Notes under the pieces: model-generated | Database searches by the model: none | Seen by the model: the letters and a program-made list of their open reading frames with translations, nothing else | What the model was told of the DNA's origin: nothing | Source: an uncultured Gemmatimonadota bacterium | Lineage (GTDB): Bacteria; JAAXHH01 | Reading direction: 5' to 3' | Length of the DNA: 64,000 bases | Assembly (NCBI GenBank): GCA_951812955.1 | Contig: OX638340.1 | Location: forward strand, 1,024,001-1,088,000 | Program-made: the position numbers and the translations under genes | Part shown: positions 9,134 through 57,900 of the stretch, piece after piece | Position numbering within the stretch: the first letter of the stretch is position 1 | Layout of the letters: every line of letters begins with the position of its first letter

Positions 9134-9187
9134 TACGGACTGCCTTTCCATTCCATACAGATTACCGGGGCGTTTAGCCGGCAGGGA

Positions 9188-13668: not shown

Positions 13669-13816
13669 ATTGTGCTCCTGGAATGTGTGGATGAGGGTCG
13701 AAAACCAGCATCGTTCCTGCGCATACATCAACTCGGTTCCACGTTGCGATTAAACTGTTGATACCGTGGAAGACCACGTCTATTATAATTGAACCTGCCG
13801 TCGGACCGGGCAGTTT

Positions 13817-13865
13817 ACCTGAAGTCTTTCGATCCTGGCAGATAACCTGAAGTCTTTCGATCCTG
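13817..13865. repeat. perfect 21-bp direct repeat ACCTGAAGTCTTTCGATCCTG x2, 28-bp period
   Basis: Copies at 13817-13837 and 13845-13865 are identical. They lie in the divergent intergenic region between the RraA-like and LarA-like genes. Confidence 0.9.
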
Positions 13866-13906
13866 TCCCCTTGTGCATCAAGTGGCCATCCCGAAAGTGG
13901 TTCGCG

Positions 13907-15463: not shown

Positions 15464-15485
15464 TTAAGCGCGCTAATGACAAGGA

Positions 15486-16511: not shown

Positions 16512-16545
16512 ATTGATATTTGCCTCGCCTGTTCGAAATGCTAGG

Positions 16546-16625
16546 CAATGCGAGACCGGTCCAGGTAATGCGGGACCCTTCCAGGTAATGCGAGACCTAC
16601 CTCGGTAATGCGGGACCCGTACCGT
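16546..16625. repeat. 20-bp tandem repeat x4 (consensus YAATGCGRGACCnnnCCnGG)
   Basis: Units start at 16546, 16566, 16586 and 16606. AATGCG(A/G)GACC is conserved in all four. The array lies between two minus-strand genes. Confidence 0.85.
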
Positions 16626-32252: not shown

Positions 32253-32288
32253 TTCGTGGTATTCCCCTGGTTTTTCGTCTACAAGGCT

Positions 32289-34316
32289 TCAGACTTGCAG
32301 TTCGTGTCTTTGCTCGGAGATGACGAACTGCAGCTTCTTGGTCGGTTTCATAGACGGAAACGGATTGAACCGCAGCTTATAGTTTGCAGGCGACACATCG
32401 ATCTTGAAGTAGTGCGCCAGCATCAGCACGTTGACAGCCAATTGCAGTTCCATCCAACGGGTGCCGAGACACATGTGCGTGCCCAGCCCGTACGGAGCGT
32501 ACCCGGGGCTGCGATGCTCATTGCGCGACGGCAAGTAGCGGTCGATGTCGAAGGAGTGCGGGTCGGGGAAGATGTCACTCATGTAATGCGAGGCGGTCGG
32601 CGCGATGTGGATCCGTTCCCTCATGGGCAGTTCGTATCCCTCAAACACACACGTATTCATCACGTGTCGAACAGACATGGGAACGATCGGGTACATGCGC
32701 ATACACTCCATGAGGAAGCGGTGCGTGACGTCAATCGCGGATGGAGTGAAGGCCTCGATGTCCGGAACGCCGTTCCCGAATACGTCATCGGCTTCATTTC
32801 GGATTTTCTCGTAGAGTGCAGGCTGCGACGCCATGGCATAGACTACCAGACTGAACGTGTCACCAAGGTACACGCTGGCGATCAACGCCGCAGAAAAGGC
32901 AAACCGCAGGTTGGCCTCCGGGAGGAATTGCGGGTCGCTCGCGTGCAGGCTAAGGTAATCGTCCACCAGGTCCCGCGGTTTTCCGGCCCGTTGGGCGGGG
33001 GTGTGGCCCTCCTCGACTCTTTTCATCAGTGTATCAAGGGATTTCGCCCGGCGTTTCATGCCCGGGGTGTTCAGCGTGAACTCGGGCAGCATCCTGGCGA
33101 TATGCACGCTGAGCGCCCGTTCCTTGTACTGCATCAGATCGTCCATCAGGTCCTGCGTGTCGATGCCGATAAACAGGGGCGAGAGTTGGGCGTTTATCAT
33201 CTGCCGGCACATGGACGTAGCAGAATAGGAATCGCCGACATTCAAGCTTGCCATGTATTTCCAGGCATGATGGTAGAGCTTGTCCAGCTGCCCCGCAAGT
33301 CTCCCGCGTGAATACGCTGGAGACAAAGACTTGCGCAGGCGGAAATGGTCGGCGCCGTCCAGGGAAGGCAAGAGGCCGGAAGCGCCGTAGACTTTCTCGA
33401 AGTCTCTGAAATAGTCCTTGGCACTCAGGTACATGCGCCCGTGCTTATGCACCCAGCGGTTTGCCTCGGGTCCGACCAGGAAGACCATGGGCCGGGTGAA
33501 AGGAGGGCGGATCTCAAACACCGGACCGTAGTCCTGCGCAAGGTCCGCAAAGAGCGCGTGGAGGTTGCCGTCTCGAACATGCGGTTGCATCATCAGCTTG
33601 CGTAACGGTACCCTCGGAATCTTCTTTGTAAAACCGGGACGTCGAAGCGTCGGGCCGGCGAGTTTGTGGGAGACTGCTTCGGCGATGGACCGGCCGATCA
33701 CGTCCATCTTGCAGATCAACTCGATGCGTTGCTCCGTCTCGTCATCGAGTTGGAACATGAATCGAAACACATCGCACGTATTGACGAGGCAAATTACGAT
33801 AACGTCTCTCGGGTCGGGGATCTCGTTCATGAAGATCGCCCGGCTGATCCGCGTTCTGATGAACTGACTTGCAGTACTCGAATCGACATCGTTGTTCAAT
33901 TCCATCTTCCAGTCAGTACGGGCCAGCGTCCAGAACTCGCCATCGTGGTGTTCCAGGATCTTCATTTCTACCAGGCGATCCAGAACCGAATCTATAATGG
34001 TCTCCGCTCGGGGGGCCAGCCGTTCGATCCAGTACTGTGTATTGTGCTGATTTGGCTCATTTACGATTTCTTCCAGAATGAAATCGATGGTGGAATTGCC
34101 CGTTGGTGTCTGGTCGAGGACGAACAGAGACCCCGGGTCCGTGTCGATGCGAGATCTGATTGAAAGCTCCGCAAGTGCGGCACCGATTACGGCGCAGTTC
34201 AAATCCCAGCCAGGCACCTGGTGGAAGTAGCCAGTCTCCTCATTGAGGAGCATCAGGATGAGTTCCTGGGTCAAAGTAAGTGATTGGGGCTTCACGTCCT
34301 TTGCAGTATCAGCCAT
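32289..34316 (-). CDS. GPP34 (GOLPH3/Vps74-like) domain fused to cytochrome P450
   Basis: The N-terminal ~200 aa follow the GPP34 pattern (LTQELILMLLNEETGYF...WDLNCAVIGAALAELSIRSRI...PDPRDVIVICL). The C-terminal part has P450 ExxR (ECMRMYP) and haem loop YGLGTHMCLG. The start is taken at the ATG at 34316, which overlaps the RND stop (TAATG); the ORF extends to 34406. Confidence 0.8.
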   Translation of the reverse strand: MADTAKDVKPQSLTLTQELILMLLNEETGYFHQVPGWDLNCAVIGAALAELSIRSRIDTDPGSLFVLDQTPTGNSTIDFILEEIVNEPNQHNTQYWIERLAPRAETIIDSVLDRLVEMKILEHHDGEFWTLARTDWKMELNNDVDSSTASQFIRTRISRAIFMNEIPDPRDVIVICLVNTCDVFRFMFQLDDETEQRIELICKMDVIGRSIAEAVSHKLAGPTLRRPGFTKKIPRVPLRKLMMQPHVRDGNLHALFADLAQDYGPVFEIRPPFTRPMVFLVGPEANRWVHKHGRMYLSAKDYFRDFEKVYGASGLLPSLDGADHFRLRKSLSPAYSRGRLAGQLDKLYHHAWKYMASLNVGDSYSATSMCRQMINAQLSPLFIGIDTQDLMDDLMQYKERALSVHIARMLPEFTLNTPGMKRRAKSLDTLMKRVEEGHTPAQRAGKPRDLVDDYLSLHASDPQFLPEANLRFAFSAALIASVYLGDTFSLVVYAMASQPALYEKIRNEADDVFGNGVPDIEAFTPSAIDVTHRFLMECMRMYPIVPMSVRHVMNTCVFEGYELPMRERIHIAPTASHYMSDIFPDPHSFDIDRYLPSRNEHRSPGYAPYGLGTHMCLGTRWMELQLAVNVLMLAHYFKIDVSPANYKLRFNPFPSMKPTKKLQFVISEQRHELQV

Positions 34317-37300
34317 TAGTGGCCTCCCTTCATCAGACGCAGATGAATGGTAGAAAGAGCGGGAACGACCATCATGAGTATGGCCGTGACGACGAGGATA
34401 CCGCAACCAAGCGATGCGGCAAAGGGAACCAGGAACTGAGCATGAATAGCGCGTTCCAGAATCAAGGGGGTGAAGCCGAGAAACGTAGTCAGAGAAGTAA
34501 GCATAATCGGACGAAAACGTCCCTTTGCGCCCTCTATGATCGCAGTTCGCGCCGGAGCGCCTTCCCTGAGTTTCTGATCGATGAAAACGATCATGACCAG
34601 TGAATCGTTCACAACCACGCCGCTCAGGCCGAATATACCCATGAAGGAGATTGCGCTCAGGGCTACTCCAAGGGCCCAGTGACCAAGGATCACTCCGATG
34701 AACCCGAACGGGATCACCGCCATGATGATGAACGGTTTGGTATAGGATCGTAAGGGGATGGCGAGCAGCACGAAGATCATGATCAGAGCGATCGCAAATC
34801 CGCGATACAGTGCATCCAGGGAATCGAGTTGTTGTTGTTGCTCACCTCCGAACGTGTAGGTCAGGTCCGGGTACACGGCGGTCAATTCCGCGAGGATTGA
34901 ATCCGCCAGGATGCTATTGGCCTGGTCACCGGAGATCACCGCGGCATCCACGTCCGCAGTGACCGTGACGACACGCTGACCATCCTTCCGCCGAATGGCC
35001 GGCGGCGACACGCCCGTGTTCAGCGCGGCCACACTGACGATCGGGACCTCGGCACCGGCCGGCGTACGGATCAGGTACCTTTCGATATCGGTGATGGAAC
35101 TTCGTTCATCGGCGGGCAGGCGCACGTAGACCCGAACCTCTTCACGGCCGCGCTGCACCCGGACGGCATCCGCACCGAAAAACGCGGCGCGCGTCTGTCC
35201 GGCCAACGCTTCCAGCGTGAGACCCAAAGTCCGCGCTTCCGGCCGGAGTTCAAGCTGTATTTCCGGGATACCCGGGGTGTGATCCGAACGGACATCGTAG
35301 ACGCCTGTCACTCCACGGAGACCATCGACCACCGAGTCCGCAATCCGGGCGAGTCGCACCGGATCCGGATGCGACAGCACGGCCTCGACCGGGTTGCCCA
35401 GGTCGAAGACCTCTCCGCTGAAGGTGACACCGCGCACGTAGGGCAGCACACCCACTTCCTCTCGCCATGCCTGCACAACCTCTCCGGTAGTGATCTGCCT
35501 TTGCTCCGCGCTCAGGAGTTTGAACTCGATGGTTGCAATGTTGGCCTGAGGATTAAGGGTGGGGGCTGGATTAAGCCCACCCTCGAGCCTCGAGCCCTGT
35601 CCGACGGTCACCATTACGCCGGTCAGCAGTGGTGGCGCATCCTCGGGGCGGCCGCGCGAAAGCCGATCGACGACCCGGTAACCTGCGGCCTCCAGTTCCT
35701 GTGCCACCTCGTATGTCCTTGGAGCGGTCGTCCCGTCGGGCATCTCCAGGATGACCGTCGCAAAATCCCCCTCCACGTCAGCAGCCAACGTGGTAGGTAC
35801 GATCCCCGCCGGTACCAGCGAGATACTAAGTACGAGTATTCCAACGGCCCCCCCCAGCGTGACCGCGGGCTGATCCGTCGCGAACCGTAACGCTCGGTCC
35901 AGGGGACCCTGCACGAACCGGTTCAGCGACTCGTTCACACGTCCCTGGATCCGCGCGAAGAACCGGTCGAAAGCACTTGTCGGCGTCCATTCCGGACCGT
36001 GCAAACGGGACAGGTGGTTGGGTAGTACCAGCAGTGATTCGATCAGGGAAACAAACAGTATGGCGATAAGGATGATCGGCAGTGCCCGCCATACGTCACC
36101 GACGCCTCCGGGTATGAACAGCAGCGGGACGAAAGCCACCACCGAAGTAAGGACCGCGAAGGTCAACGGCACTTTTATCCGTCGTACTCCGCGTATCGCA
36201 GCCACGACACCGGGCGTTCCCCGACTGCGTTCATATTGAATGTGCTCGGCTACGACGATGGCGTCATCGACGACAATCCCTATGGCGAGGACGAAAGAGA
36301 ACAGGCTGATGGTGTTAATAGCTACGTCGAGTACCATCATGACGGCCAATGTGCCTATACCCGAAACGGCGAGGCCGACGGCGACCCACAATGCAAGCCG
36401 GATTTCCAGAAACAGGCTGAGTGCGATCAACACCAGCAACAGACCCAGGATGCCATTCTTGACGAGAATATCGGCACGTTCCTCATAGGCTTGGGATTCG
36501 TCATTCCACATGGTGATGTGCACACCGTTCGGCAGAGCCGGGATCACCTCGTTTGCCATATGTTCCCGGACAGTCGTGGCGACGTCCATCACTTGTTCGC
36601 CGTTGGCTCGGTACACCTCGACGAATACAGCGGGATGGTTCTGATGCCGAACAATCAGGTCGGATTCCTGAAAACCATCGCGAACCCTGGCGATATCGCC
36701 AAGGCGCAAGGCAGTGCCGTCACTTCTGCTAAGCAGGATGATCTCTTCGAAATCCTGCTGGTCGTAGTTCTGGCCGAGGGTACGAACCCGCACCTGGGAT
36801 TCCCGGGTATCGATACTGCCGGCAGAAAGGTTCAGGGAACTGCGACGAATGGTATTGGCGACATCGGCGAGTGTCAGTCCAAGGGCTCTCAGCCGATGAA
36901 GCGGCACCTCGATGGAGATCTCGTATTTCCGAACACCACTGACCTCGACCTGGGACACGGACGGAAGCGCCGTGAGTCCATCCTCGATCTGATATGCCGT
37001 TTCCTTCAGCGAGCGTTCGGACACGTCGCCGTAGACGATGAACCGTATCATGCTCATACGGTTGTCCATCTCACGGAAACTGGGACGATCGGCACCGGCC
37101 GGGAAAGACTGGATGCGATTGACCGCGGACTCGATATCGTTGAGCGCCTGGACCATGTCCGTACCGAAATCCATTTGAATCCGCACGGATGCTATACCCG
37201 GGGCCGCTACAGACTTGACCGCCTTCACGTCATCCAACCCGCTGACCTGGTCCTCGATCTTGACGACGATCGACTCCTCGACCTCCTCCGGCGTGGCGCC

Positions 37301-37489
37301 GGGATAGGCCATCGACACTTCGATATGGTAGAAGGGAGTAGTGGGCCACGCTTCCCGATCGATGCCGGACAGCGAAATCAGCCCTGCGGCGACGATGGCC
37401 ATCATCAACAGATTGGCGGCCACGCTGTTGCCCGTCATGTAAGCGATCGGACCGGAAGGTTCGTTATGATTTCCGTTGTCCATACTCAT
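34316..37489 (-). CDS. RND efflux transporter permease (AcrB/HAE-type, 12-TM)
   Basis: 1057 aa with AcrB-like architecture and sequence style (...AYPGATPEEVE...VKSVAAPG...). A 4-nt overlap links it with the MFP gene. Confidence 0.9.
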   Translation of the reverse strand: MSMDNGNHNEPSGPIAYMTGNSVAANLLMMAIVAAGLISLSGIDREAWPTTPFYHIEVSMAYPGATPEEVEESIVVKIEDQVSGLDDVKAVKSVAAPGIASVRIQMDFGTDMVQALNDIESAVNRIQSFPAGADRPSFREMDNRMSMIRFIVYGDVSERSLKETAYQIEDGLTALPSVSQVEVSGVRKYEISIEVPLHRLRALGLTLADVANTIRRSSLNLSAGSIDTRESQVRVRTLGQNYDQQDFEEIILLSRSDGTALRLGDIARVRDGFQESDLIVRHQNHPAVFVEVYRANGEQVMDVATTVREHMANEVIPALPNGVHITMWNDESQAYEERADILVKNGILGLLLVLIALSLFLEIRLALWVAVGLAVSGIGTLAVMMVLDVAINTISLFSFVLAIGIVVDDAIVVAEHIQYERSRGTPGVVAAIRGVRRIKVPLTFAVLTSVVAFVPLLFIPGGVGDVWRALPIILIAILFVSLIESLLVLPNHLSRLHGPEWTPTSAFDRFFARIQGRVNESLNRFVQGPLDRALRFATDQPAVTLGGAVGILVLSISLVPAGIVPTTLAADVEGDFATVILEMPDGTTAPRTYEVAQELEAAGYRVVDRLSRGRPEDAPPLLTGVMVTVGQGSRLEGGLNPAPTLNPQANIATIEFKLLSAEQRQITTGEVVQAWREEVGVLPYVRGVTFSGEVFDLGNPVEAVLSHPDPVRLARIADSVVDGLRGVTGVYDVRSDHTPGIPEIQLELRPEARTLGLTLEALAGQTRAAFFGADAVRVQRGREEVRVYVRLPADERSSITDIERYLIRTPAGAEVPIVSVAALNTGVSPPAIRRKDGQRVVTVTADVDAAVISGDQANSILADSILAELTAVYPDLTYTFGGEQQQQLDSLDALYRGFAIALIMIFVLLAIPLRSYTKPFIIMAVIPFGFIGVILGHWALGVALSAISFMGIFGLSGVVVNDSLVMIVFIDQKLREGAPARTAIIEGAKGRFRPIMLTSLTTFLGFTPLILERAIHAQFLVPFAASLGCGILVVTAILMMVVPALSTIHLRLMKGGH

Positions 37490-47136: not shown

Positions 47137-47174
47137 ATCAGTAGGCCTGGGCGTAATCAGTAGGCCTGGGCGTA
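47137..47174. repeat. perfect 19-bp tandem duplication (ATCAGTAGGCCTGGGCGTA x2) covering the proS stop codon
   Basis: Copies at 47137-47155 and 47156-47174 are identical. The second copy contains the proS stop and its last five codons (YAQAY*). The first copy is a noncoding duplicate. Confidence 0.95.
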
Positions 47175-48584
47175 GGCGACCATGCGCTCCGAAGGACCAC
47201 CGCAATACGCGCAGGCACCCGTAACGGCATCCCAGTGCATGGGGACGCACCGGATCGTGTTCCGGGTCTCCTCTTTAATCGCGGCTTCGCAAGCCGGATC
47301 GCCGCACCAGTGGGCATGGATGAATCCGCCGTCGCCGTTCGCGGCTGTCACAAATGAATCGCGTTCCTGGATCTCCTGGGAACGTGATTCGCGGAAAGTC
47401 AGGGCGCGCTGGAACATGTCCCGCTGCACCGTCTGCAGCAAGTCTCCGACCCGGCCTCCCAGAGACTCGAGGGGTACAAACTCCTTCTCGCCCGTGTCCC
47501 TGCGTACGACTACGGCCTGGCCGGACGCGATATCACGCGGACCGAGTTCCACGCGCAGCGGAACGCCCTTCGTTTCCCACTCGGTGAACTTCCAGCCCAG
47601 GCCGAACTGCTCGCGGTCGTCGACCTTCACCCGCACGCCTTCCAGCGTTTCGAGCAGCCGGTCGACGGCTTCCCGGACGACGGCCTGCTCCTCGTCGGAT
47701 TTCGCGATGGGAATGACCACGACCTGGTGAGGCGCCAGGCGGGGCGGCAGCACCAGCCCCCTGTCGTCGCCATGGGCCATGATGATCGCGCCGACGGTCC
47801 GGGTGCTCATCCCCCAACTCGTCTGGTACACGTACTCTCGCGAACCGTCCCGCGTCTGAAAATCGATATTGAAGGCGCGGGAGAAGTTCTGCCCCAGGTT
47901 GTGCGACGTGCCCATCTGAAGGGCCTTGCCATCCTTCATCATGCCTTCGATGGCGTAGGTCTGCAGCGCGCCTGGGAATTTCTCGGCGTCTGTTTTCGGA
48001 CCGTATAGCACCGGAATCGCCATGTAGTCTTCGGCGAAGGTGCGGTATATGTCCAGGATGCGCAGGGTTTCCTCTTCTGCCTCTTCCGCCGTGGCGTGTG
48101 CCGTGTGTCCTTCCTGCCAGAGGAATTCCGTCGTGCGCAGGAAGGCCCTGGGACGGAGTTCCCACCGGAAGACGTTGGCCCACTGGTTGATGAGCAGGGG
48201 CAGGTCGCGATAGGACTGGATCCACCTGGCGTACATGTCCGCTATGATGGTCTCTGAAGTCGGGCGGACCATGAGGTTTTCTTCGAGCTTCTTGCCCCCG
48301 CCGTGCGTAACCACGGCGCATTCGGGAGAAAACCCCTCCACGTGTTCGGCTTCTTTCTGGAAGAAACTGTCGGGGATCAACAGAGGGAAATAGGCGTTCA
48401 CGTGACCGGTGTCCTTGAACATCCGGTCCAGTTCCGCCACCATGTTTTCCCAAAGTGCGAATCCGTATGGCCGGATGACCATGCAGCCGCGGGTCGGCGC
48501 GTTGTCGGCCAGTTCGGCTTTCGCGATCACTTCATTGTACCAGGCTGAGAAATCGTCCGCCTGCGCGGTCAACTTTTTTGCCAT
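47157..48584 (-). CDS. proS: proline--tRNA ligase (archaeal/eukaryote-like type with C-terminal Zn-binding domain)
   Basis: 475 aa. It has the N-terminal ...FSAWYNEVIAKAELADNAPTRGCMVIRPYG..., class II motifs, a C-terminal Cys cluster and a terminal Tyr. Confidence 0.9.
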   Translation of the reverse strand: MAKKLTAQADDFSAWYNEVIAKAELADNAPTRGCMVIRPYGFALWENMVAELDRMFKDTGHVNAYFPLLIPDSFFQKEAEHVEGFSPECAVVTHGGGKKLEENLMVRPTSETIIADMYARWIQSYRDLPLLINQWANVFRWELRPRAFLRTTEFLWQEGHTAHATAEEAEEETLRILDIYRTFAEDYMAIPVLYGPKTDAEKFPGALQTYAIEGMMKDGKALQMGTSHNLGQNFSRAFNIDFQTRDGSREYVYQTSWGMSTRTVGAIIMAHGDDRGLVLPPRLAPHQVVVIPIAKSDEEQAVVREAVDRLLETLEGVRVKVDDREQFGLGWKFTEWETKGVPLRVELGPRDIASGQAVVVRRDTGEKEFVPLESLGGRVGDLLQTVQRDMFQRALTFRESRSQEIQERDSFVTAANGDGGFIHAHWCGDPACEAAIKEETRNTIRCVPMHWDAVTGACAYCGGPSERMVAYAQAY

Positions 48585-48692
48585 TTTTCCGCTCCGGTAT
48601 CCTTGAGCTGTCTTACGTTACACGCTGTAACCCGCACCGCGCCGCACCACCACCTATAACCCGGTTCGTCACGATCCGCCGGGACGGCAAGT

Positions 48693-49103
48693 CTACCCCG
48701 ATTCCACCTTTTCGTCCGAGGTCATCGCGAGATAGAACCGCCCGATCTCCACTTCGAAATTCCGGCCGTCCGCATCCTGCATTTCATATTCGCCTTCCAT
48801 GGTGCCCCACTCCGTGTCCAGGGGGCAAAGGCTCTGGTATTCGTGGCTTTCCCCCGGTTCGAACTCGGGCTGCAACCCCACAACGCCCGGGCCTCTGATT
48901 TCGCTGCGTTTTCCGTCGGCATTGATGATGACCCAGTGACGGTTGATCAGTTTCACCCACTGCTCGCTGCCATTGGTGATGACGATACGGTACGCGAACA
49001 CATACTGGTCCCGCCCGGGATCGGAATGGTCGGGAAGGTAGCCAGGATAAACCTGGACACGTATACCATGGGTGATCGTGTCGGAATCCAGTGGTGTCGC
49101 CAT
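48693..49103 (-). CDS. apaG: ApaG (DUF525) protein
   Basis: ...ITHGIRVQVYPGYLPDHSDP...YVFAYRIVITN...RHWVIINADG...GPGVVG.QP... is the ApaG signature pattern. The start is taken at MATPLDS; the ORF extends to 49145. Confidence 0.8.
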   Translation of the reverse strand: MATPLDSDTITHGIRVQVYPGYLPDHSDPGRDQYVFAYRIVITNGSEQWVKLINRHWVIINADGKRSEIRGPGVVGLQPEFEPGESHEYQSLCPLDTEWGTMEGEYEMQDADGRNFEVEIGRFYLAMTSDEKVESG

Positions 49104-49228
49104 CGAACCGCTCCGCGGAAATGACCTTGAAAATCGAAGATGCATAAGATAAATACCGGGGGATGAAACGACAAATAAAATCCGACTCGGAAATCGATCC
49201 CGGCTTCAGAGGCCGTGCCAAAAACACC

Positions 49229-49257
49229 TTGACACTACAGGGTCGTATCTCTATTCT
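49229..49257 (+). promoter_or_regulatory. candidate sigma70-type promoter for gltA (TTGACA-17 nt-TATTCT)
   Basis: TTGACA at 49229-49234 and TATTCT at 49252-49257, about 40 nt upstream of the ATG at 49298, which is preceded by GGGGAAG. Confidence 0.4.
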
Positions 49258-49297
49258 GTCCACGGCATAAAACAGTATCACGCGGGGAAGAATCGGA

Positions 49298-50419
49298 ATG
49301 GTCAATCAAGGCCTGGAAGGCGTCGTAGCCGCACAGTCGGCCATCTGTTTTATCGATGGCCAGCAGGGCAGAATGCTCTACCGGGGCCACGACATTCACG
49401 ACCTGGCCACCCATTCGAGTTTCGAGGAAACCGCCTACCTGCTGTGGCACGGCATCCTGCCCGGTCCAGGCCGGTTGGCGGAACTCGAAGAGCAGCTTCT
49501 AACCGGTAGAACCCTGCCTTTCGAAGTCATGGAACTGCTGCGGGCGATTCCGCGGGACACGGCGCCCATGGACGTGCTCCGTTCCGCGGTCTCGTTCCTT
49601 GCCGCGTACGACCCGGACGTGGCGAACCATTCCCGCGAAGCGAACCTGCGCAAAGCCGTCCGCCTGACCGCCCAACTCGCATCCATAACCACGGCCTGGC
49701 ACCGGATCTCGAACGACGAACCTCCTGTGGATCCGAATCCCGGTCTCGGCCACGCGGCGAATTTCCTTTACATGCTGAGCGGTGCGGAACCGGAACCCGA
49801 GCATGCGAGGGCCTTTGACGTCGCCATGATACTGCACGCCGACCATGAGTTGAACGCGTCCACCTTCTCCGCCCGGGTAACCGCGGCCACGCTTTCGGAC
49901 ATGCATTCTGCGGTCACGTCGGCCATCGGCACGCTCAAGGGCCCACTGCACGGAGGCGCCAACAAGGACGTGATGGATATGCTTTACGAGATCCGGGAGA
50001 TCTCCCGTGCCGAGGATTACGTCAGAGAGAAACTGGCCGCGAGAGAAAAAATCCCCGGTTTCGGTCACCGTGTCTACAAGACGGAAGATCCCCGGGCGAC
50101 GCACCTGCGACGACTTTCCAAGGACCTGGGCAGGAGTGCGGGCGACCTGAAGTGGTTTGAAATGTCCCGTGTGATCGAGAAAACGATGATGGAAGTGAAG
50201 GGCATTGCCTGCAACGTGGACTTCTATTCCGGTTCGGTATACACCACCATGGGCATTCCGGCTCGGTTGTTCACGCCCGTTTTCGCCTGCGGCCGCATCA
50301 CCGGTTGGACCGCCCATCTCCTCGAACAGTACGCCGATAACCGGATCATCCGTCCCGTGGGAGAGTACACGGGGCCGACCGAAGCCCGGTATATACCCAT
50401 GGATGGGCGCCCCGCCTGA
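49298..50419 (+). CDS. gltA: citrate synthase (small type; citrate/2-methylcitrate synthase family)
   Basis: 373 aa with the N-terminal GLEGVVA...S.I..IDG and the catalytic GFGHRVYKTEDPRA motif. Confidence 0.9.
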   Translation: MVNQGLEGVVAAQSAICFIDGQQGRMLYRGHDIHDLATHSSFEETAYLLWHGILPGPGRLAELEEQLLTGRTLPFEVMELLRAIPRDTAPMDVLRSAVSFLAAYDPDVANHSREANLRKAVRLTAQLASITTAWHRISNDEPPVDPNPGLGHAANFLYMLSGAEPEPEHARAFDVAMILHADHELNASTFSARVTAATLSDMHSAVTSAIGTLKGPLHGGANKDVMDMLYEIREISRAEDYVREKLAAREKIPGFGHRVYKTEDPRATHLRRLSKDLGRSAGDLKWFEMSRVIEKTMMEVKGIACNVDFYSGSVYTTMGIPARLFTPVFACGRITGWTAHLLEQYADNRIIRPVGEYTGPTEARYIPMDGRPA

Positions 50420-50450
50420 GAAGCGGAACGCCCGATCGGTGACATGTCAT

Positions 50451-51038
50451 ATGATACAGGCTTTCCGCGCGCTGGTCTTCGCGACAACCGTCAGTGTATT
50501 TGCATTGCCGGCGTCCGGCCAGTTCAATTTCAACCTGGGCGGCGAAATAGCCCGCCCCACGTCGGGTCTTGCCAAACTGGTCGAAGAAGACTATGGTTAC
50601 GGCGCCCATGCCGCCCTGACTTACTGGTTGAGTTATCGAGTCCAGTTCGTCTGCTCGGGCGGCTACATCACATACGGTAGCGAAGCGTTCGCCTCCCGCA
50701 CCGAAGTGGAGGACCTGGTAGACCGGAATCTGGACGAAATAGTCGACCGGATCGAAGGCAATTACTCCAGCATACCGGTGACCACCGGGCTGCGATTCTA
50801 CCCTCTGGAACGACTCTTCGTGCAGGGCTCTGCCGGCGTGGTGTACAAGAGAACGCGGCAGAAAGGCGACGCAGCCACGAATTCGGAAGAGGGCTTCGTC
50901 ACTGAAAGAGAACTCATCGTGTCGCCGGGGGTCGGGCTGCTGATCGGCCGTTTCAGCCTGCAGGCGCAGTACAACGTGTCCAAGGACGACTGGAAGTGGT
51001 TGAGCCTGGGGGTGTCGATGATCTTCGGGAAGCTGTAA
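50451..51038 (+). CDS. small outer-membrane beta-barrel protein
   Basis: Has the signal peptide MIQAFRALVFATTVSVFALPASG and a beta-strand-style sequence. The start is taken at the ATG at 50451; the upstream part of the computed ORF overlaps gltA. Confidence 0.5.
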   Translation: MIQAFRALVFATTVSVFALPASGQFNFNLGGEIARPTSGLAKLVEEDYGYGAHAALTYWLSYRVQFVCSGGYITYGSEAFASRTEVEDLVDRNLDEIVDRIEGNYSSIPVTTGLRFYPLERLFVQGSAGVVYKRTRQKGDAATNSEEGFVTERELIVSPGVGLLIGRFSLQAQYNVSKDDWKWLSLGVSMIFGKL

Positions 51039-51146
51039 GGCTTCTGCTGTAAAATGCTTTCAGAATGTCGTCCTTGGAAGAAAACTCTAAACTACGCATT
51101 TGCAGACATCCGATTTTAACAGGCCCCTCCATTTACGGTAATTGCT

Positions 51147-54103
51147 ATGCCAGTCAATAGCGAGCCATCCTTCAACGAAGCACTGGCACGTGTCCTCCGG
51201 TCGAAGAATCCTCGCTGGCGGGACACGCTTGCCGCAGAACAACACCAAACGCTAAAGGGTGGCGGTAGACCTGACGTAATACTGCGGAATCCGCGCGGTT
51301 CGGTGGTTGTCGTCGAGACCGAGTACGTTCCAGCCCGTACGGTTGAGACGGAAGCCAATGATCGCATCGGTCGAGAACTCAGTGATTCAGGCGTGGCTAT
51401 TGAGCAGTGTGTCGCCGTCCGAGTACCTGATTACTTAAAAACGGTCCCTCAGCACGATCTCGACACCCGTACGGCGGTGGCGACCTACGAATTCTGCCTC
51501 TTCAGCGAAACGGACAATGCCGAGGATCCTTTGCGCTGGCCTGCGGATGGTTGGATCACAGGCGCGATCAACGATCTCGCGCTCCTGATCGAAACCGCGT
51601 CGATTTCAGAACGGATCGTCGCCCAAAGCCTGGACATTCTGGAAGATGGGATAAGCGAAACTGCCGTCCAGTTGCGCGAAGCCACTAAGGACAGACCAAA
51701 CGTAAGTTCCCGCATTGCGAAAACGCTCCTGCAAGAAGACGGCGTGCAGACTTCCCGAATGGCTATGGCCATCATCGCAAATGCGCTCACTTTTCAGAGC
51801 ATGCTCGCCGGGGTCTTTCACGTAAAGACGATCGACGATCTACGCCGGAACGGAGTCATCCCAAAGTCGGCGGTCCTGCGAGAATGGAAGCGCATCCTTC
51901 GAATAAACTACTGGCCCATATTCCACATTGCGAGCGAGGTCCTCAGTCCGATTCCGGATGGCATCTCCGCTCGTTTGCTGGAAAAGTTGTCGAATGTGTC
52001 GAGCGAGTTAGAAGCACACGGCATCACCCAGTCACACGACATCTATGGGCGAATGTTCCAGCGGATGATCAGCGACAGGAAGTTCCTCGCGACGTTTTAC
52101 ACCTTGCCCACGTCGGCGACGTTGCTCGCGGAGTTGGCAGTTGAGATGATAGACGTTGAGTGGAGCGATCCTGATGAGGTGACGAAGCTTCGCACCGCAG
52201 ACTTTGCATGCGGTACGGGTACGTTGATCACGGCGCTCTATCAGGCAATGCTGGGTCGCCATCGACGTGCTGGCGGCAACGATGAGGCGATTCACAAGAG
52301 CATGATGGAGACTTCTATCTTCGCGGCCGATATCATGCCGGCGGCTACCCATCTGACCACTTCGATGTTGTCCAGTACCCATCCAACAACCCCTTTCGAG
52401 CAGACCCGTGTCCATCTCTTGCCCTACGGCCAGCAGGAGGACGACGTAGGGGCCATTACCTTCGCGCTGGGCGCGCTTGACCTGATACGAGCGCAGCACG
52501 GTACCGGACTATTCGAGAACACGGGGATCATGGTACAAAGCGGTACAGAAAGCACGCAGGACGTCATTAGAGAAGCAGGTAGATTGACGGACACATTCCT
52601 GCTTCAGCACCACTCGATGGACGTGGTTATCATGAATCCGCCCTTTACTCGCCCGACCAACCACGAAGCGACCGATGTCCCTGTACCTTCTTTTGCCGGC
52701 ATGGGAAATAATGAGGCAGAGCAGGCAGCCATGTCCCAACTTCTGAGAGATATCCGGAGGGAAATTGACGATCCCGCCGGTCACGGAAACGCCGGACTCG
52801 CGTCCAATTTCCTTGACCTCGCTGACGCCAAGATCCGTCCCGGCGGCTTGCTTGCGCTCGTGATGCCACTCAGCCTTCTTCAAGGCAACGCGTGGAAGGC
52901 AAGCCGCGACCTACTGCAGGCAAAGTATGAGAGCGCAGTGGTCGTCAGCCTAGCATCCGTAGTTCGAGACAGTGCGGTATCATTCTCGGCCGATACCGGA
53001 ATGGGAGAGGTGTTGTTGATCGCACGACGCAGAACCGTACCAGACAGTCCAGAGCACACGAAAACTGAAGAGACAGTCGATACGGTTACCTATTCGCGCT
53101 GCGAAAGCCGCCGGCATCGGGAACCGAGGCAACAGGGATCGCATCGGCGATTCGTGACGCGATCCAGCAGGGCACCTCGCGAATCGCCATTGGAAACGCC
53201 CGTTACGGTATTCTCACACGAGGTACCTGGGACGAGGGCCACTGCGCGTCAGTGATAAATGCTGAACTCGTAGATACCGTGAGAAACCTGCAAGATAGCA
53301 AACTGAAATTGCCTCGAATGGCTCAAGCGTATTCGGTTCCAACAACGATGCTGGGCGAGTTGGGAAAACGGGGCTTGGTTCACCGAGATATCAATGGGAT
53401 TGAAAGAAAATCCGTTCAAGATCAACAGGAATCAAAACGGTATTTTCGCGGTCCGTTCGATATCGTACATACGACAGACGAACCGACCTTTCCGGTTCTC
53501 TGGGGACATGCCACTGACCGCGAACGTTGCATCGTGGTTCAGCCTGACAGTGCAGGAATAATTCGCGAAGACTGTGAAGACGGCGCGCACGATGCCTGGA
53601 GAACGGCGACCAGGCTCCACTTCAGTCTCGACTTTCGCCTCAACTCACAATGCCTCGCCGCGTGCCTTACTCCAACCGAAACACTGGGAGGAAGAGCATG
53701 GCCCAATTTCCAGATGGACAGCCGTAGGAATGAGACTGTTACCGCGCTGTGGGCTAACACAACGCTGGGACTGATACTGTTCTGGTGGGCAGGTACCGTT
53801 CAGCAAGCAGGACGAGCCAACCTTACCATCAGCAGGTTGCCCGAACTGCTCACGCTGGATGCGCGTACGCTGACAGACGCGCAGCACAAGCAGGTAGATC
53901 TGATCTTCAAAGAGTTTGAGAAACGCCCACTGTTGCCAGGAAACGAGGCGTATCGGGACGCGAGCCGACAGGCGCTGGATGAGGCCGTGCTCATTGGCCT
54001 CATTGGACTGCCTGAATCAATTCTCGATCCTCTCGCGGTGCTTCGCCGGCAGTGGTGCAGTGAGCCGACCGTGCATGGTGGGAAAAGTACGCGACCCAAT
54101 TGA
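51147..54103 (+). pseudogene. MmeI-like (Type IIG/IIL) fused restriction-modification enzyme, interrupted by a 1-nt frameshift
   Basis: The N-terminus has a PD-(D/E)xK-like motif (GGRPDVIL...VVVETEY). The gamma-class N6-adenine MTase motifs are FYTLPTSATLLAEL, DFACGTGTL (motif I) and MNPPF (motif IV). The frame changes near 53069-53100. The frame of the downstream ORF is open from 53069 and reads protein-like (...YLFALRKPPASGTEATGIASAIRDAIQQG...), whereas the upstream frame turns into an Arg-rich tail. Confidence 0.7.
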
Positions 54104-54173
54104 ATAGTTTTACGATAGTACTCAAACCCCAAAATGCAGTTGGCTTCCATATAGCACCGCATTCTAATTGATC

Positions 54174-56870
54174 ATGAATTGCGATGGTAATATGAGTTCA
54201 TCTAAAATCAGACCTGCTGAAAAACCGCTCGCAATGTTTGTAAGTAGTGTGATGGATGATGACCTTCAACCATATCGAGATACAGCAGAATCCCTGATCA
54301 ATTCCAGGTTCCTCACGTCTTGGGTTTTCGAATACACCCCCGCGAGTTCTGAATCATTAGACGAGTCCTATTTACGACACGTAAGAAATGCGGATTTCGT
54401 AATATGGATAGGTGGTGAAAAAACATCGAATCCTGTGAAGCGGGAGGTAAATGAAGCAATCATTCATCAAAAACGCCTGTTGGTTTTTCTACTACCTGCT
54501 AACACTAGAAATGCTGGTACTGAGGAGATAATTGAGACTATCAGTTCAAACAAAGGTCCAAAGTGGTGTAAACTGGACGATCGAAATATCGAAACATTTG
54601 AGGAAGCACTTGACTATACGATACAGGACGAATTTGCTCGGGCGATTAGAAATGATCATAGTTGGCAACGAATCGGCACATTGGAACGACTAAACCGCGA
54701 CTCTCGAGCAAGGTCTTTGTCCAGATTCATGGCATCCGGCCTTTCACGAAATCAAGCAAATCGTATGTTTAAGAAGGTTTCCGATCTTCCTGTCTTAGCA
54801 TCGCCTGAGTTACCGAAAGAAGGCGAGGTGAGTTTACTTGTTGGGACGCTGGGATCCGGAAAGTCATTCACGGCTGAAAAAGTGTATCAGGAGGTCCTTG
54901 ATCAATCTAGATCTCCGTTGGCTCCTGTACCTTTCTACATAACTGCACGTCATGTTAGAAATGGTTTGGATTCTTACATCAAACAACTCAATCCTGAGTT
55001 AGGTGACGTCACTTCAATTGGCGCCTCCATAGTAATTGATCAAATTGACGATCTTCCCAATTCCGATTCACGCCGACTGTATGAAGAAGCGCTTGCTCTC
55101 ACGTTATCGTGGCCCAAGACGAGGGTTCTACTCGTTAGTCGTCCTCAGCCGTGGAGCCGAGACTGTGTTGCTACTACACATGTAAGGGAGATGTCGTTAG
55201 AGGAAGTTGAAACTGTGGTAGAACTCGTGTCGGATTCAATTCGTTCCCAGCTTCTTTGGATAATGCCTCATGCTTTACGTCGATCCGTTCAACGCCCTCT
55301 TTTCGCGATCCTGCTTGCCAAGTATCTCGAATCTAATGAAGATCAAGTTCCAATTTCTATGGCTAAGTTACTCGACCGGATGGTACGCGAAGCTGTCGAG
55401 AACGCTGGCACTGAAAGCAATCAGTCGATAGAAAAGATGCTGAGGTCTTTGGCTGTAAAACTGACAGACGGCCATGCCGATGTGAAACTGACGGATCTTA
55501 CTATACCAATATCCGATAGAAACAGACTCTTAAATACACATTTGGTATATGAGGAATCTGAACGTCTGGATTTTGCCTTGCCTATCTTGCGGCAATGGTT
55601 CGCATTTGATGCCATATGTCAAAAAGAAGTAGATATCGTAGAATTATCACTTGATGCGGGACGACTCGATAAGTGGGAAGATGTATTAACCACTGCAGTT
55701 GAACTCGCCACTAATCAGATTGATGACATAGTAGAACCCATTGTCGTCAATAACCCATCTGTAGCGTCAGTCATTCTCGACAGTGCATTCGGCCATCTGT
55801 GGTATAGTAGTCCTGATTCTGATCTATCTGCCGACACGTTCGGGAAACATATTCGAAGGGCAATGACGGCATTTGCCAAAGGCATAGGCCCTCTAAGTGG
55901 GCTAATTGCTCCTGTGAATGAACAAGGAGAAGTAAAACCGCTCGGTGTAGCCAAATTGAACGAAGGCTATTACAAGACGAGTTGGTATGAGGGATCATCT
56001 GACATAGAAAACGTAGTCGGGGTTTCTTCGGAAGATGATTTGGCGATTTCTGATTGGCCCCACATTTTCTCGCGAACAAGGATAGACTCACCTGCGTGGG
56101 CTTGGCTGGATGTCAAGCACCAGTTGAGGGAGCGTTTGGAAAAACTACTAAATTGTTACGGTTTTCCTATTCGAAATACCTTCTTCTTGCATGAATCAGC
56201 TTGGGAATTAGCATCCTCGGCATTGAACCGACATTCGCAGTTAGAACCCCAAGTCTCTAGTGATGAAATGAATGACGTGCTCCGATGGATCCAGAAAAGA
56301 CCTTCGACCATGCTTCGACAATTTAGTCCAGAGACCGTAGTGTTAGCAGCAACGTACCTACAAGGACTCATTGACAAAAACAGGCCACTCCGAGCACCGT
56401 GGCCTGGGCCTGATCAGGCTTTGTCTAGTAGTAAGTGGGTGTGGGAACTGTATTCTCCTGAGAGGCTTCGCAAAAGGCTTCAACGCGTCTTAAGTGCATC
56501 TTTAGAAATGTATCAGGAAATCGTATCCAAATGGTTTATCACTATGTCCAACAGATTCGAGTTATTTTCACTAAATCCAGTACGTCTTGTTGGTTACTTA
56601 TACGTGCCTGAAGGAAAAACTTCCGACTTGAGAAGTGAACCATCCGTAACGTTCTATTTTGAACCGATTCGGGGACATGTGTCGTCAAGTGTGGATATCT
56701 TTCTCGGTTCAATTCCGTTAGCAGAATTAGAGTCAACTGTACTTAAAGTCAATCCAAATGCTATCACAATATGTACGTCTATGGTTGTCAGTATTTTCGG
56801 CAGACGTCCAGCAACTGATCAGGCTTACGATTGGCTGAAAGACGGTTTACGTTCCGCCAAGTGGGACTAA
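54174..56870 (+). CDS. DUF4062-like N-terminal domain / NACHT-type STAND P-loop NTPase / uncharacterised C-terminal domain (Avs/bNACHT-like)
   Basis: The N-terminus ...LAMFVSSVMDDDLQPYRDTAESLI... follows the DUF4062 pattern. The NTPase motifs are Walker A LLVGTLGSGKSF, Walker B SIVIDQIDDL and a NACHT-like RVLLVSRPQP. About 560 aa of C-terminus have no motif I recognise. The start is ambiguous (TTG 54168, ATG 54174 or ATG 54192). Confidence 0.7.
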   Translation: MNCDGNMSSSKIRPAEKPLAMFVSSVMDDDLQPYRDTAESLINSRFLTSWVFEYTPASSESLDESYLRHVRNADFVIWIGGEKTSNPVKREVNEAIIHQKRLLVFLLPANTRNAGTEEIIETISSNKGPKWCKLDDRNIETFEEALDYTIQDEFARAIRNDHSWQRIGTLERLNRDSRARSLSRFMASGLSRNQANRMFKKVSDLPVLASPELPKEGEVSLLVGTLGSGKSFTAEKVYQEVLDQSRSPLAPVPFYITARHVRNGLDSYIKQLNPELGDVTSIGASIVIDQIDDLPNSDSRRLYEEALALTLSWPKTRVLLVSRPQPWSRDCVATTHVREMSLEEVETVVELVSDSIRSQLLWIMPHALRRSVQRPLFAILLAKYLESNEDQVPISMAKLLDRMVREAVENAGTESNQSIEKMLRSLAVKLTDGHADVKLTDLTIPISDRNRLLNTHLVYEESERLDFALPILRQWFAFDAICQKEVDIVELSLDAGRLDKWEDVLTTAVELATNQIDDIVEPIVVNNPSVASVILDSAFGHLWYSSPDSDLSADTFGKHIRRAMTAFAKGIGPLSGLIAPVNEQGEVKPLGVAKLNEGYYKTSWYEGSSDIENVVGVSSEDDLAISDWPHIFSRTRIDSPAWAWLDVKHQLRERLEKLLNCYGFPIRNTFFLHESAWELASSALNRHSQLEPQVSSDEMNDVLRWIQKRPSTMLRQFSPETVVLAATYLQGLIDKNRPLRAPWPGPDQALSSSKWVWELYSPERLRKRLQRVLSASLEMYQEIVSKWFITMSNRFELFSLNPVRLVGYLYVPEGKTSDLRSEPSVTFYFEPIRGHVSSSVDIFLGSIPLAELESTVLKVNPNAITICTSMVVSIFGRRPATDQAYDWLKDGLRSAKWD

Positions 56871-56898
56871 TTCATTCAGTTTCAGATACCTTTGATTC

Positions 56899-57900
56899 AT
56901 GGCTTACGAATCCCGTATGACCGAATTCAGGAAAGCGAGAGACCGCGGTGCCAAATACCTGCTTCGCCAGGTACACGCGGACGGCAGTTTCGGCAATCCC
57001 GTTCTCGGCGTAACCGAATACTACAAGGCGCCGGCCGCGTTTCTCGTGTGTGGACTGTCCCATGCCGCGAATCGACAGCTAAACTGGATCAGGCACAACG
57101 GCTTCCTGCCGAACGGTGATTTCGGTCCAAGACCCGCCAGCGAACGCAACAGTTACTATTACACCTACCACAATGCCTGGGTGATCAAGGCGGCCCACCG
57201 CATGGGCGCTTTCGACCTCGCCCGGCGCGGCATGGACTTCCTCCTCGGATTCCGCGACCCGGCCAGCGGCGGTTTCTACTCCCACCCGATGGCGCGCGAC
57301 GATACGACCGAGCAGGACCTGTGGGTCGTGAGCGGCATAGGCTGGTGCGCCGTTTACACCGGAAAGCTGGACGTGGCCAGGGGCATCGGCCGCTGGATGC
57401 GTCGCCTGATGGAGGATCAGCCCGATTACCCCAGTGCGTTGTGGACGGTCTACAGCCGCGACCGCGGACTGATCACCGAGGTGCTGGACGGCGACGATTT
57501 CAGGTACGTGCTGACTCGGGACGAGTCGCGCGACCAATCCTTCTACCACCCAGGCATCGCGGCTGGCTTCCTGTGCCGCCTCTACATGGCCACGGGCGAG
57601 GAGGAATGGCTGGATCTCGCGAGGGAGTACATGCGGTTCTGCGAAAACGTGGGGGACTATCACTTCAAGTTGCTGCGCGCGGGCAAGGTCGGTTGGGCTG
57701 GCGCGATGCTCTACACGCTCACGGGGGAAGTAAAGTACCGCGACATGGCGGTCAGGGTAGGAAACAACCTGGTCCAGGCCCAGTTGGCAAACGGCGCATG
57801 GGCCTGGCCGGAGATGGGGCTGACCGGACCGCACAACGACATCACGGCCGAAATGGTCGTATGGCTCGACGAGATCCACCAGGCGGTTGGCGACGGCTAG
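56899..57900 (+). CDS. prenyltransferase/squalene-oxidase-repeat (alpha/alpha toroid) protein
   Basis: 333 aa with QW-like or prenyltransferase-like repeats: GAKYLLRQVHADGSFG, ASGGFYSHP...DDTTEQDLWVVSGI and VGNNLVQAQLANGAWAW. Confidence 0.5.
   Translation: MAYESRMTEFRKARDRGAKYLLRQVHADGSFGNPVLGVTEYYKAPAAFLVCGLSHAANRQLNWIRHNGFLPNGDFGPRPASERNSYYYTYHNAWVIKAAHRMGAFDLARRGMDFLLGFRDPASGGFYSHPMARDDTTEQDLWVVSGIGWCAVYTGKLDVARGIGRWMRRLMEDQPDYPSALWTVYSRDRGLITEVLDGDDFRYVLTRDESRDQSFYHPGIAAGFLCRLYMATGEEEWLDLAREYMRFCENVGDYHFKLLRAGKVGWAGAMLYTLTGEVKYRDMAVRVGNNLVQAQLANGAWAWPEMGLTGPHNDITAEMVVWLDEIHQAVGDG

Follow-up and report, generated by a model that had tools for sequence, protein, structure and literature searches.

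Do the two adjacent genes at positions 51039-56898 of contig OX638340.1 (as numbered within the analysed stretch of 64,000 nucleotides from an uncultured Gemmatimonadota bacterium, referred to here as the window) form one imported defence module, or are they separate elements? The first encodes a fusion of a nuclease and an N6-adenine methyltransferase (the methyltransferase gene) and the second a nucleoside triphosphatase (NTPase) with DUF4062 and NACHT domains. A preliminary description, made from the sequence alone, regarded both as parts of a single low-GC island carrying a two-gene defence module. The comparisons described below make it probable that two defence elements of one gene each, independent of one another, occupy a single recombination hotspot here: an ancestral type IIG/IIL-like restriction-modification gene, frameshifted in this genome, and an exchanged cassette encoding an NTPase that resembles nucleotide-binding leucine-rich repeat (NLR) proteins.

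Extent of the low-GC stretch

The GC content is 0.444 over 54104-56898 against a background of 0.607 +/- 0.016 (527 windows of the same size; minimum 0.559), a deviation of z = -10.1. The methyltransferase stretch (51147-54103), with a GC content of 0.562 (z = -2.9), lies at the low edge of the background range. In sliding windows of 500 nucleotides (nt), a sharp trough (0.44-0.48) occurs solely at ~54.1-56.9 kb; values are 0.52-0.59 across 51.0-54.1 kb and 0.59-0.65 in the flanks, and no stretch in the rest of the 64-kb window approaches the trough. GC at third codon positions (GC3) is 0.72-0.81 in the neighbouring genes, 0.62-0.64 in the methyltransferase gene and 0.40 in the NTPase gene. 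The five GC counts made by hand in the preliminary description (36/60, 33/60, 25/60, 20/60 and 42/60) were all exact, and the sharp drop it reported is real over the NTPase stretch; the methyltransferase gene is only mildly low, and the difference in GC between the two genes, given there as about 15 points, was measured as about 11.5 points.

The same locus was compared among Gemmatimonadota relatives, namely L001/L002, L003 and L083 (metagenome contigs) and L004 (Gemmatimonadetes bacterium APA_bin_41), L005 (OY762445.1) and L008 (OZ241838.1), the latter three found by a genome scan with the methyltransferase family. They share the gene order ProRS, DUF525, citrate synthase, outer-membrane-like (OMP) gene, methyltransferase gene, a slot of variable content and an alpha/alpha-toroid-like gene. 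In L083, the citrate synthase gene was not called at its usual place. The methyltransferase fusion is present at this position in all seven relatives, with a near-native GC content and a housekeeping-like degree of conservation: amino acid (aa) identity among relatives is 83-93% and the ratio of nonsynonymous to synonymous divergence (dN/dS) is 0.10-0.13, comparable to the neighbouring genes. The closest relatives are L004 and L005 (ProRS 98.5-98.7% and citrate synthase 97.9% identical to the window). The window and L005 share 93.8% DNA identity over 44001-54096 and are co-linear again from 56926; between these points the window carries 2.8 kb and L005 an unrelated 0.8 kb. As the methyltransferase gene belongs to the conserved backbone of the clade and co-linearity with L005 stops at 54096, the low-GC island consists of the NTPase cassette alone and the methyltransferase gene lies outside it, contrary to the single island proposed earlier. 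For the methyltransferase gene, this native-like GC and housekeeping-like conservation in relatives is the outcome that the preliminary description had itself named as speaking against its proposal.

Probable exchange of cassettes in a hypervariable slot

Junction alignments place the left boundary of the slot in the last codons of the methyltransferase gene and the right boundary within the opening codons of the alpha/alpha-toroid gene. The cargo is the NTPase gene alone in the window, the NTPase gene with an Amidase_2-type gene in L001, L003 and L083, a 206-aa ORFan unrelated to the NTPase (following an intact 989-aa methyltransferase) in L005, and a DUF6338 protein with a 282-aa protein in L008. 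Every one of these cargoes has a GC content of 0.41-0.50. A homologous left junction is common to the window, L001, L003 and L083, and a homologous right junction to the window, L001 and L003. The stepwise acquisition, or replacement of the downstream gene, that had been suggested in the preliminary description is borne out by these relatives, L005 possessing another gene in the slot.

Probable remnants of recombination are found in the relatives. A duplicated 5' fragment of the toroid gene follows the NTPase stop codon in L001 (12722-12910; L002, ~10946-11134) and L003 (~12686-12810). In L001, this fragment is joined via an 11-nt microhomology, CCTGCTCGGAC, to a second copy, 101 nt long and 87% identical, of the 3' end of the methyltransferase gene, after which a second cassette is found (a 167-aa gene and an Amidase_2/PG_binding_1 gene), two slot cassettes thus lying in tandem. 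Prompted by the 101-nt repeat, an integrase-type insertion with a duplicated target was considered and rejected, since the junction proved chimeric, with the toroid gene's 5' end as its other half. This chimeric microhomology junction therefore speaks for unequal or illegitimate recombination between two cassette alleles and not for insertion by an integrase. The tandem layout is what would be expected of a remnant of unequal recombination between two alternative cassette alleles, and points to such an event. Exchange of the slot through its conserved flanks, rather than by dedicated integration machinery, is likewise suggested.

The hallmarks of an integrase-mediated island (integrase or transposase, tRNA or attachment site, flanking repeats) are missing here: the neighbouring open reading frames (ORFs) are of housekeeping type and the cassette holds the NTPase gene only. 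No tRNA is found in the whole 64-kb window, and a repeat search around the cassette identified no meaningful direct or inverted repeats flanking the low-GC stretch, only short chance matches; the preliminary description had likewise seen no integrase, transposase, tRNA or flanking direct repeats at the island. A promoter and terminator scan gave fewer sites than shuffled controls and was uninformative. In the favoured account, the common ancestor of this Gemmatimonadota clade would already have carried the restriction-modification gene, which would then have passed down together with the housekeeping genes around it. Strains would exchange the content of the slot (here the 2.8-kb cassette) by recombining within the conserved sequence on either side, with no role for an integrase, tRNA or repeats.

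Between the window and L001/L003, housekeeping genes have an aa identity of 83-93%, a synonymous divergence (dS) of 0.52-0.71 and dN/dS of 0.06-0.18. The corresponding values are 83-85%, 0.73-0.81 and 0.12 for the methyltransferase gene (window versus L001/L083) and 70-71%, 0.68-0.80 and 0.23-0.29 for the NTPase gene (window versus L001/L003). The NTPase gene is under purifying selection, with its protein evolving about twice as fast. Between L001 and L003, the NTPase gene has a dS of 0.82 against 0.25-0.55 in the flanks, a hint of allele exchange.

Further observations concern the surroundings of the slot. The toroid gene of the window begins with an N-terminal extension of 6-7 codons (56899-56925; MAYESRM...), which is absent in relatives without the NTPase and is homologous to the sequence 3' of the NTPase gene in L001 and L003; the start codon of the toroid gene in this genome is therefore cassette-derived. 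Over 47157-57900, dS between the window and L005 climbs toward the slot (ProRS 0.13, citrate synthase 0.10, OMP 0.19, methyltransferase 0.29, toroid 0.42), a rise that would be expected if hotspot recombination imports diverged flanks. Downstream of the slot in L001 (16610-22721) are genes for a 373-aa protein matching PADLOC candidate PDC-M30A (E 1e-12), a DUF5131 protein and a 1305-aa SIR2_2 protein; the window is without these genes. In some relatives, the larger region around the slot behaves as a defence island.

A predicted single-chain restriction-modification gene and its decay

The methyltransferase gene is a predicted nuclease and N6-adenine methyltransferase fusion, as had been recognised in the preliminary description. 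Intact orthologues are 985-991 aa in length (985-989 aa in L001 and L005, 991 aa in L083). Among 20-25 homologues, P42, D43, E57 and E59 of the PD..ExE nuclease motif, G356xG358 of motif I and N497-P-P-F500 (motif IV) are invariant, and motif I lies upstream of an NPPY/F-type motif IV as in gamma-class N6-adenine methyltransferases. The third catalytic position of the predicted nuclease (D..ExE) is Glu and not the Lys of PD-(D/E)xK; Glu at this position is a variant known from BamHI. An AlphaFold model of the close homologue P0031 (predicted local distance difference test score, pLDDT, 75.6; predicted template modelling score, pTM, 0.82) gave as its best Foldseek matches the type IIG enzyme BpuSI (E 8e-14, whole length) and the type IIL enzyme DrdV, followed by type I M subunits, the type ISP enzyme LlaBIII, BREX PglX and BsaXI. 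The predicted nuclease, the methyltransferase and the presumed recognition region form a single chain, and separate R, M or S genes are absent.

The three ORFs listed in the region (51147-53255, 53252-54103 and 54168-56870) are all co-directional. The statement in the preliminary description that the stretch holds only two genes in the same direction stands, except that the first of these is read as two ORFs because of a 1-nt deletion. One G is missing at 53093/53094 (ctat-tcg in the window versus ctatGtcg in L001, L003, L004, L005 and L008), at a site that is no homopolymer run. The tail of ORF 51147-53255 resembles out-of-frame sequence, with protein-like sequence continuing in another frame from ~53090. 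By tblastn, an intact 985-aa orthologue matches 51147-53093 and 53090-54097 in two different frames (switch at 53090-53093), and addition of one G restores an ORF of 985 codons. The reading frame is thus not intact in this genome. The deletion separates the catalytic from the recognition part, and most likely both cleavage and methylation would be lost. The gene has been broken independently in three of seven lineages: in the window, in L003 by an IS1595 insertion (6309-7253) and a frameshift (~9032), and in L008 by a frameshift near aa 270 (~10807-10821). Where intact, it is under strong purifying selection (dN/dS 0.10-0.13).

The missing base could also be an assembly error, in which case the enzyme would be intact and active in the living cell. 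This is unlikely, although a single base is concerned in an otherwise well conserved gene and dN/dS on the window branch, at 0.117 against L005, is not raised and indicates no relaxed constraint. A recent mutation would not yet have raised this ratio, the site lies outside any homopolymer run, and the independent disruptions in L003 and L008 show that loss of this gene is common in the clade.

Two further readings of the split gene were considered. A natural two-subunit form was suggested by a Dinoroseobacter plasmid encoding the C-terminal region only; that copy proved to be a remnant among insertion sequence (IS) elements, and this reading was rejected. At 53252-53255, the TGA stop codon of the truncated ORF overlaps a GTG codon in the original frame (GTGA), a layout resembling translational coupling. 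Such coupling is unlikely and the overlap probably coincidental, because ~50 well-modelled, structured residues would be lost anyway.

The family to which the gene belongs is large, with >4800 homologues and at least 574 genome stretches encoding a relative, and maintains ~50% identity across many phyla; several genomes carry 2-4 copies. It is very common in metagenome-assembled genomes (MAGs) of at least ten phyla (L004-L082), among them Latescibacterota, Dehalococcoidia/Chloroflexota, Acidobacteriota, Alpha- and Gammaproteobacteria, Gemmatimonadota, Spirochaetales, Cyanobacteria, Acidimicrobiia and Binatia. Many of the MAG names (Poriferihabitaceae, Palauibacter rhopaloidicola, APA_/CAR_/RHO_ bins) presumably indicate marine sponge microbiomes. 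Clustering of flanking ORFs at 77 loci revealed no recurrent neighbour gene, because of which 51147-54103 is considered a stand-alone single-chain gene of predicted type IIG/IIL-like restriction-modification activity. Curated libraries gave only sub-threshold matches for the fusion: PADLOC MTase_II and mad2, NCBIfam TIGR02987 (24.7 versus 353.5 bits) and Pfam Eco57I (PF07669; 15.2 bits versus a cut-off of 25.3, with a weak match in 12 of 25 family members). The defence-system check proposed in the preliminary description therefore yielded a weak match for the methyltransferase gene; the NTPase was not recognised by PADLOC 2.0. A PDB sequence search gave marginal matches only (BrxX motif I, NLRC4 and a TIR).

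It is improbable, if conceivable, that the family comprises not classical sequence-specific restriction enzymes but modification-dependent or other DNA-targeting enzymes. Such a role would fit the C-terminal third, which at ~50% identity across phyla and with many invariant residues is unusually conserved for a specificity domain (and is poorly modelled at aa 743-854), as well as the multiple copies per genome and the position of the family below every Pfam and NCBIfam threshold. The best whole-length fold matches are nevertheless BpuSI and DrdV, the invariant nuclease and NPPF motifs fit an enzyme combining cleavage and methylation, and no partner gene accompanies it.

An NLR-like NTPase with a DUF4062 domain

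The domain call made for the second gene in the preliminary description was right. The protein is composed of a DUF4062 domain, a NACHT module (~280 aa) and a C-terminal region (~420 aa), and its AlphaFold model has a pLDDT of 84 and a pTM of 0.75. Pfam DUF4062 (PF13271) matches residues 24-84 of the 900-aa ORF with 25.7 bits (gathering cut-off 24.7), and this domain has the TIR or nucleoside-deoxyribosyltransferase-like fold. The NTPase module, with helical and winged-helix extensions, is structurally similar to solved NACHT domains; a weak, sub-threshold Pfam NPHP3_N match occurs at the P-loop. Walker A (GSGKS) fits GxxxxGK[ST], with G221, G223 and K224 invariant in 24 homologues, and D283 (Walker B) and R317 are likewise invariant. 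The Walker B consensus of the family, IVIDGxDE, fits the NACHT signature D[GAS]hDE (10.1101/2022.07.19.500537). F16, E47, W72 and E85 are invariant in 20 homologues bearing DUF4062. In two preprints of 2026, this domain is described as a TIR-like NADase, and the single-gene systems Swarozyc and Evangelion are reported to protect by depletion of nicotinamide adenine dinucleotide (NAD+) and abortive infection (10.64898/2026.05.01.722283; 10.64898/2026.06.25.731849). It also adjoins a NACHT ATPase in human TEP1, NWD1, NWD2 and NPHP3 (10.64898/2026.05.01.722283).

An exhaustive search (E<=1e-30) identified homologues in 447 clusters at 50% identity. The homologues in L001/L002, L003 and L083 are 63-70% identical to the NTPase. 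Many homologues share the protein from ~residue 155 to the C-terminus and differ at the N-terminus, where alpha/beta-hydrolase or lipase-like, calcineurin-like phosphoesterase, CHAT or PNP_UDP_1 domains are found; effector swapping of this kind is typical of immune STAND (signal transduction ATPases with numerous domains) proteins and conflict systems. No conserved neighbour was found at 89 loci and the family is solitary. Its contexts include a serine-recombinase element, a single-gene low-GC insertion amid housekeeping genes, and ORFan-rich regions with transposases. NCBIfam offered no usable assignment for the NTPase, and a scan of viral contigs found no relatives of the family.

By analogy with bacterial NACHT proteins, Avs, Swarozyc and Evangelion, the C-terminal region would sense a phage-derived trigger. 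The NACHT module might then exchange nucleotide and oligomerise, gathering the DUF4062 domains and so switching on NAD+ hydrolysis, and the ensuing NAD+ depletion would abort the infection. We tentatively propose, as a real possibility, that the 892-aa product defends against phage on its own as an NLR-like system, its NACHT module acting as the switch for a DUF4062 NADase. It would then be the bacterial equivalent of the DUF4062-NACHT core found in animal TEP1, NWD1 and NPHP3, with a sensor of undescribed fold, and the lasting AT-richness of its gene would stem from alleles being imported again and again into one recombination slot common to symbiont strains.

Several points weigh against the favoured account of the locus. 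Pfam NACHT (PF05729) scores 17.5 bits against a gathering score of 26.7; a precomputed match is present in some homologues. The Walker B of the window protein itself reads D-Q-I-D-D and departs from D[GAS]hDE, with Q for the small residue and D for E. E85 and F16 were matched to E97 of KpSwz and E87 of Eva01 (F11 in Eva01) by motif order only. PADLOC 2.0 (2023, including Avs and bNACHT models) gave no match at E<=0.01 for the window NTPase, P0014 or P0019, and only a marginal mad8 match for P0011. Finally, GC is ~0.45 and GC3 0.40-0.42 in four lineages (window 54192-56870; L001 10001-12721; L003 10001-12685; L083 8001-10109) despite a dS of ~0.7-0.8, in hosts of 61-68% GC whose neighbouring genes have a GC3 >0.7. 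Lineage-polarised synonymous changes show a weak AT-to-GC excess (106 AT-to-GC versus 71 GC-to-AT); the rates are about equal per site, which implies an equilibrium GC3 near 0.5 and not a host-like one. Simple vertical residence does not explain this persistently low GC3.

The NTPase might alternatively not be immune at all but act as a STAND-type regulator or housekeeping signalling protein, in a MalT/AfsR-like or TEP1-like manner, and be AT-rich by chance. The missing PADLOC match, the occurrence of some homologues amid housekeeping genes (L086), the purifying selection (dN/dS 0.23-0.29) and the failure to find relatives on viral contigs are in line with this role. We consider it quite improbable, since the gene is patchily present in close relatives, in a slot with turnover, has a foreign composition in both the window and L086, and possesses no DNA-binding output domain. 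Moreover, its N-terminal effector is exchanged for CHAT, PNP-like, lipase-like, phosphoesterase and probably HNH domains, as is typical of conflict systems, some homologues lie in integrative or ORFan-rich contexts (serine recombinase, transposases), and DUF4062 has been reported as a defence NADase.

Independence of the two genes

The NTPase was sought within 10 kb of the methyltransferase gene at 79 genome loci (L004-L082) and was found at none of them, including L004, L005 and L008 of the same clade (the L004 contig ends ~700 bp past the methyltransferase gene). Conversely, among ~86 NTPase loci outside the clade (835 kb in total), a methyltransferase relative occurs near the NTPase only once, in L087. 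There, an NTPase homologue (8001-10838; 27% identity) and a methyltransferase homologue of 957 aa (13698-16571; 28% identity) lie 2.9 kb apart, a pairing that counts against independence; a DDE transposase gene is situated between them. Within the clade, the methyltransferase gene is broken in the window, L003 and L008; of these three, the window and L003 retain an intact NTPase gene and L008 has none. L083 shows the converse, a truncated NTPase next to an intact methyltransferase. The two genes thus decay independently. In L083 (6937-10109), the NTPase was called as a protein of 702 aa without the DUF4062 region, with ~1 kb of uncalled sequence upstream, beside the methyltransferase of 991 aa.

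That the pair is one horizontally acquired island acting as a two-gene defence system, as first proposed, is largely refuted and very improbable: the genes are adjacent, co-directional and 88 nt apart, belong to defence-type classes as had been stated, remain together in four lineages (window, L001/L002, L003 and L083) and have relatives within 3 kb of each other in L087, but they show no co-occurrence outside the clade beyond that one distant case and neither has a conserved neighbour, L005 (~98% identical in housekeeping proteins) carries the methyltransferase without the NTPase, either gene is found broken beside an intact other, and they differ in GC and GC3 and about two-fold in dN/dS. 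The methyltransferase and NTPase genes are not a two-gene module; the locus is probably a small defence hotspot with two independent single-gene systems.

Features of the locus and of the remaining window

Table 1. Coordinates, in the window, of the two genes, their domains and motifs, and the flanking backbone genes
Feature	Position	Strand	Remarks
195-aa outer-membrane-like (OMP) gene	50451..51038	+	Backbone left of the methyltransferase gene; 72-94% identical at the same position in L001, L003, L004, L005 and L008; no Pfam match
Type IIG-like restriction-modification gene, first part (aa 1 to ~649)	51147..53093	+	N-terminal PD..ExE nuclease motif, helical linker, gamma-class N6-adenine methyltransferase core
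Nuclease motif residues	D43 at 51273-51275; E57/E59 within 51312-51326	+	Invariant in 20-25 homologues
Methyltransferase motif I, DFACGTG (aa 352)	52200-52220	+	Invariant in 20-25 homologues
Methyltransferase motif IV, NPPF (aa 497)	52635-52646	+	Invariant in 20-25 homologues
Frameshift site, one G missing	53093..53094	+	DNA alignment with L001, L003, L004, L005 and L008
Type IIG-like gene, C-terminal part (aa ~650-985), presumed DNA-recognition region, out of frame with the first part	53094..54103	+	84.5% identical to L001 aa 649-984
Listed ORF from a GTG start overlapping the upstream out-of-frame stop (GTGA)	53252-54103	+	ORF list
Low-GC cassette filling the hypervariable slot, from methyltransferase stop to alpha/alpha-toroid gene start	54104..56898	.	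GC content, break of co-linearity with L005, differing slot content in relatives
NLR-like STAND (NTPase) gene, 892 aa from ATG	54192..56870	+	Identical to database protein P0001
DUF4062/TIR-like effector domain (aa ~12-130)	54225..54581	+	Candidate catalytic Glu E85 at 54444-54446; F16 at 54237-54239
NACHT NTPase module (aa ~195-470, approximate)	54774..55601	+	Walker A GSGKS within 54843-54869; Walker B DQIDD within 55026-55058; invariant R317 within 55134-55148
NTPase C-terminal region (aa ~471-892, approximate), presumed sensor	55602..56867	+	Confidently modelled
Alpha/alpha-toroid-like gene	56899..57900	+	Backbone right of the slot; 81-89% identical to relatives; first ~6 codons cassette-derived, homology to relatives from 56926

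Elsewhere in the window, a stretch of slightly low GC (0.555-0.57) is found at 31209-34406 on the minus strand. It comprises an ORF with Sterol_MT_C, CMAS and methyltransferase domains (31209-32252, minus strand) and a 705-aa ORF with GPP34 and cytochrome P450 domains (32289-34406, minus strand), the latter perhaps an artefact of the ORF listing that joins two genes. Next to these ORFs is an AcrB-type transporter (34316-37489), and the group may represent a sterol or lipid modification cluster.

Comparison with known systems

An old restriction gene in decay and a single-gene hotspot cassette together account for what looked like an island of two genes, a caution against inferring modules from adjacency. 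If active, the NTPase would offer a tractable bacterial model for the activation of a DUF4062 NADase under NACHT control, an architecture also present in human TEP1, NWD1 and NPHP3, and its sensor domain would be a new one among bacterial pattern-recognition receptors. The methyltransferase fusion represents a large uncurated type IIG-like family common in MAGs, which restriction-modification catalogues may lack. Both genes belong to known kinds: the NTPase is an NLR-like member of the bacterial NACHT proteins whose predicted effector is DUF4062, and the methyltransferase fusion is a predicted restriction-modification enzyme of type IIG-like form.

The NTPase shares with bNACHT proteins (10.1101/2022.07.19.500537) a single-gene tripartite layout, in which a predicted enzymatic effector at the N-terminus is followed by a central NACHT module and a presumed C-terminal sensor, as well as the family Walker B consensus DGxDE and the swapping of effectors between close NACHT relatives. 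It differs in that its effector is DUF4062 and not a canonical TIR, nuclease or similar domain, in that it matches no PADLOC 2.0 model and has DQIDD as its own Walker B, and in its C-terminal region, which is without repeat architecture or a recognised fold. With Swarozyc (KpSwz) and Evangelion (Eva01), it has in common a DUF4062/TIR-like domain at the N-terminus, in which F16 and E85 would by motif order correspond to the conserved aromatic and acidic residues of those systems, and a single-gene, horizontally mobile and patchy distribution; NAD+ depletion would be expected by analogy. Those systems consist of DUF4062 and a short auxiliary region with no NTPase, whereas in the window protein DUF4062 is followed by an entire NACHT module and ~420 further C-terminal aa, and it therefore stands outside both lineages. 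The order of DUF4062 followed by NACHT and the weak NPHP3_N match are shared with the eukaryotic proteins TEP1, NWD1, NWD2 and NPHP3 and with bacterial TEP1-like proteins, but WD40, TROVE and TPR repeats are absent from the NTPase and its C-terminus differs.

Like type IIG/IIL enzymes (BpuSI and the MmeI-family enzyme DrdV), the methyltransferase fusion is a single chain that begins with a putative PD-(D/E)xK-type nuclease and continues through a helical linker and a gamma-class N6-adenine methyltransferase to a presumed recognition region at the C-terminus; it has no partner genes, and these enzymes are its best whole-length structural matches. It is unlike them in its marginal sequence similarity, its D..ExE (not D..ExK) triad and its unusually conserved C-terminal region, and in the frameshift of the window copy. 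The slot itself resembles chromosomal defence hotspots between core genes, where conserved flanks bracket differing cargo of foreign composition in close relatives and no integrase is involved. It differs from these hotspots in its very small size (one to few genes), in having a defence gene as one of its flanks, and in the tandem cassettes of L001 joined by microhomology.

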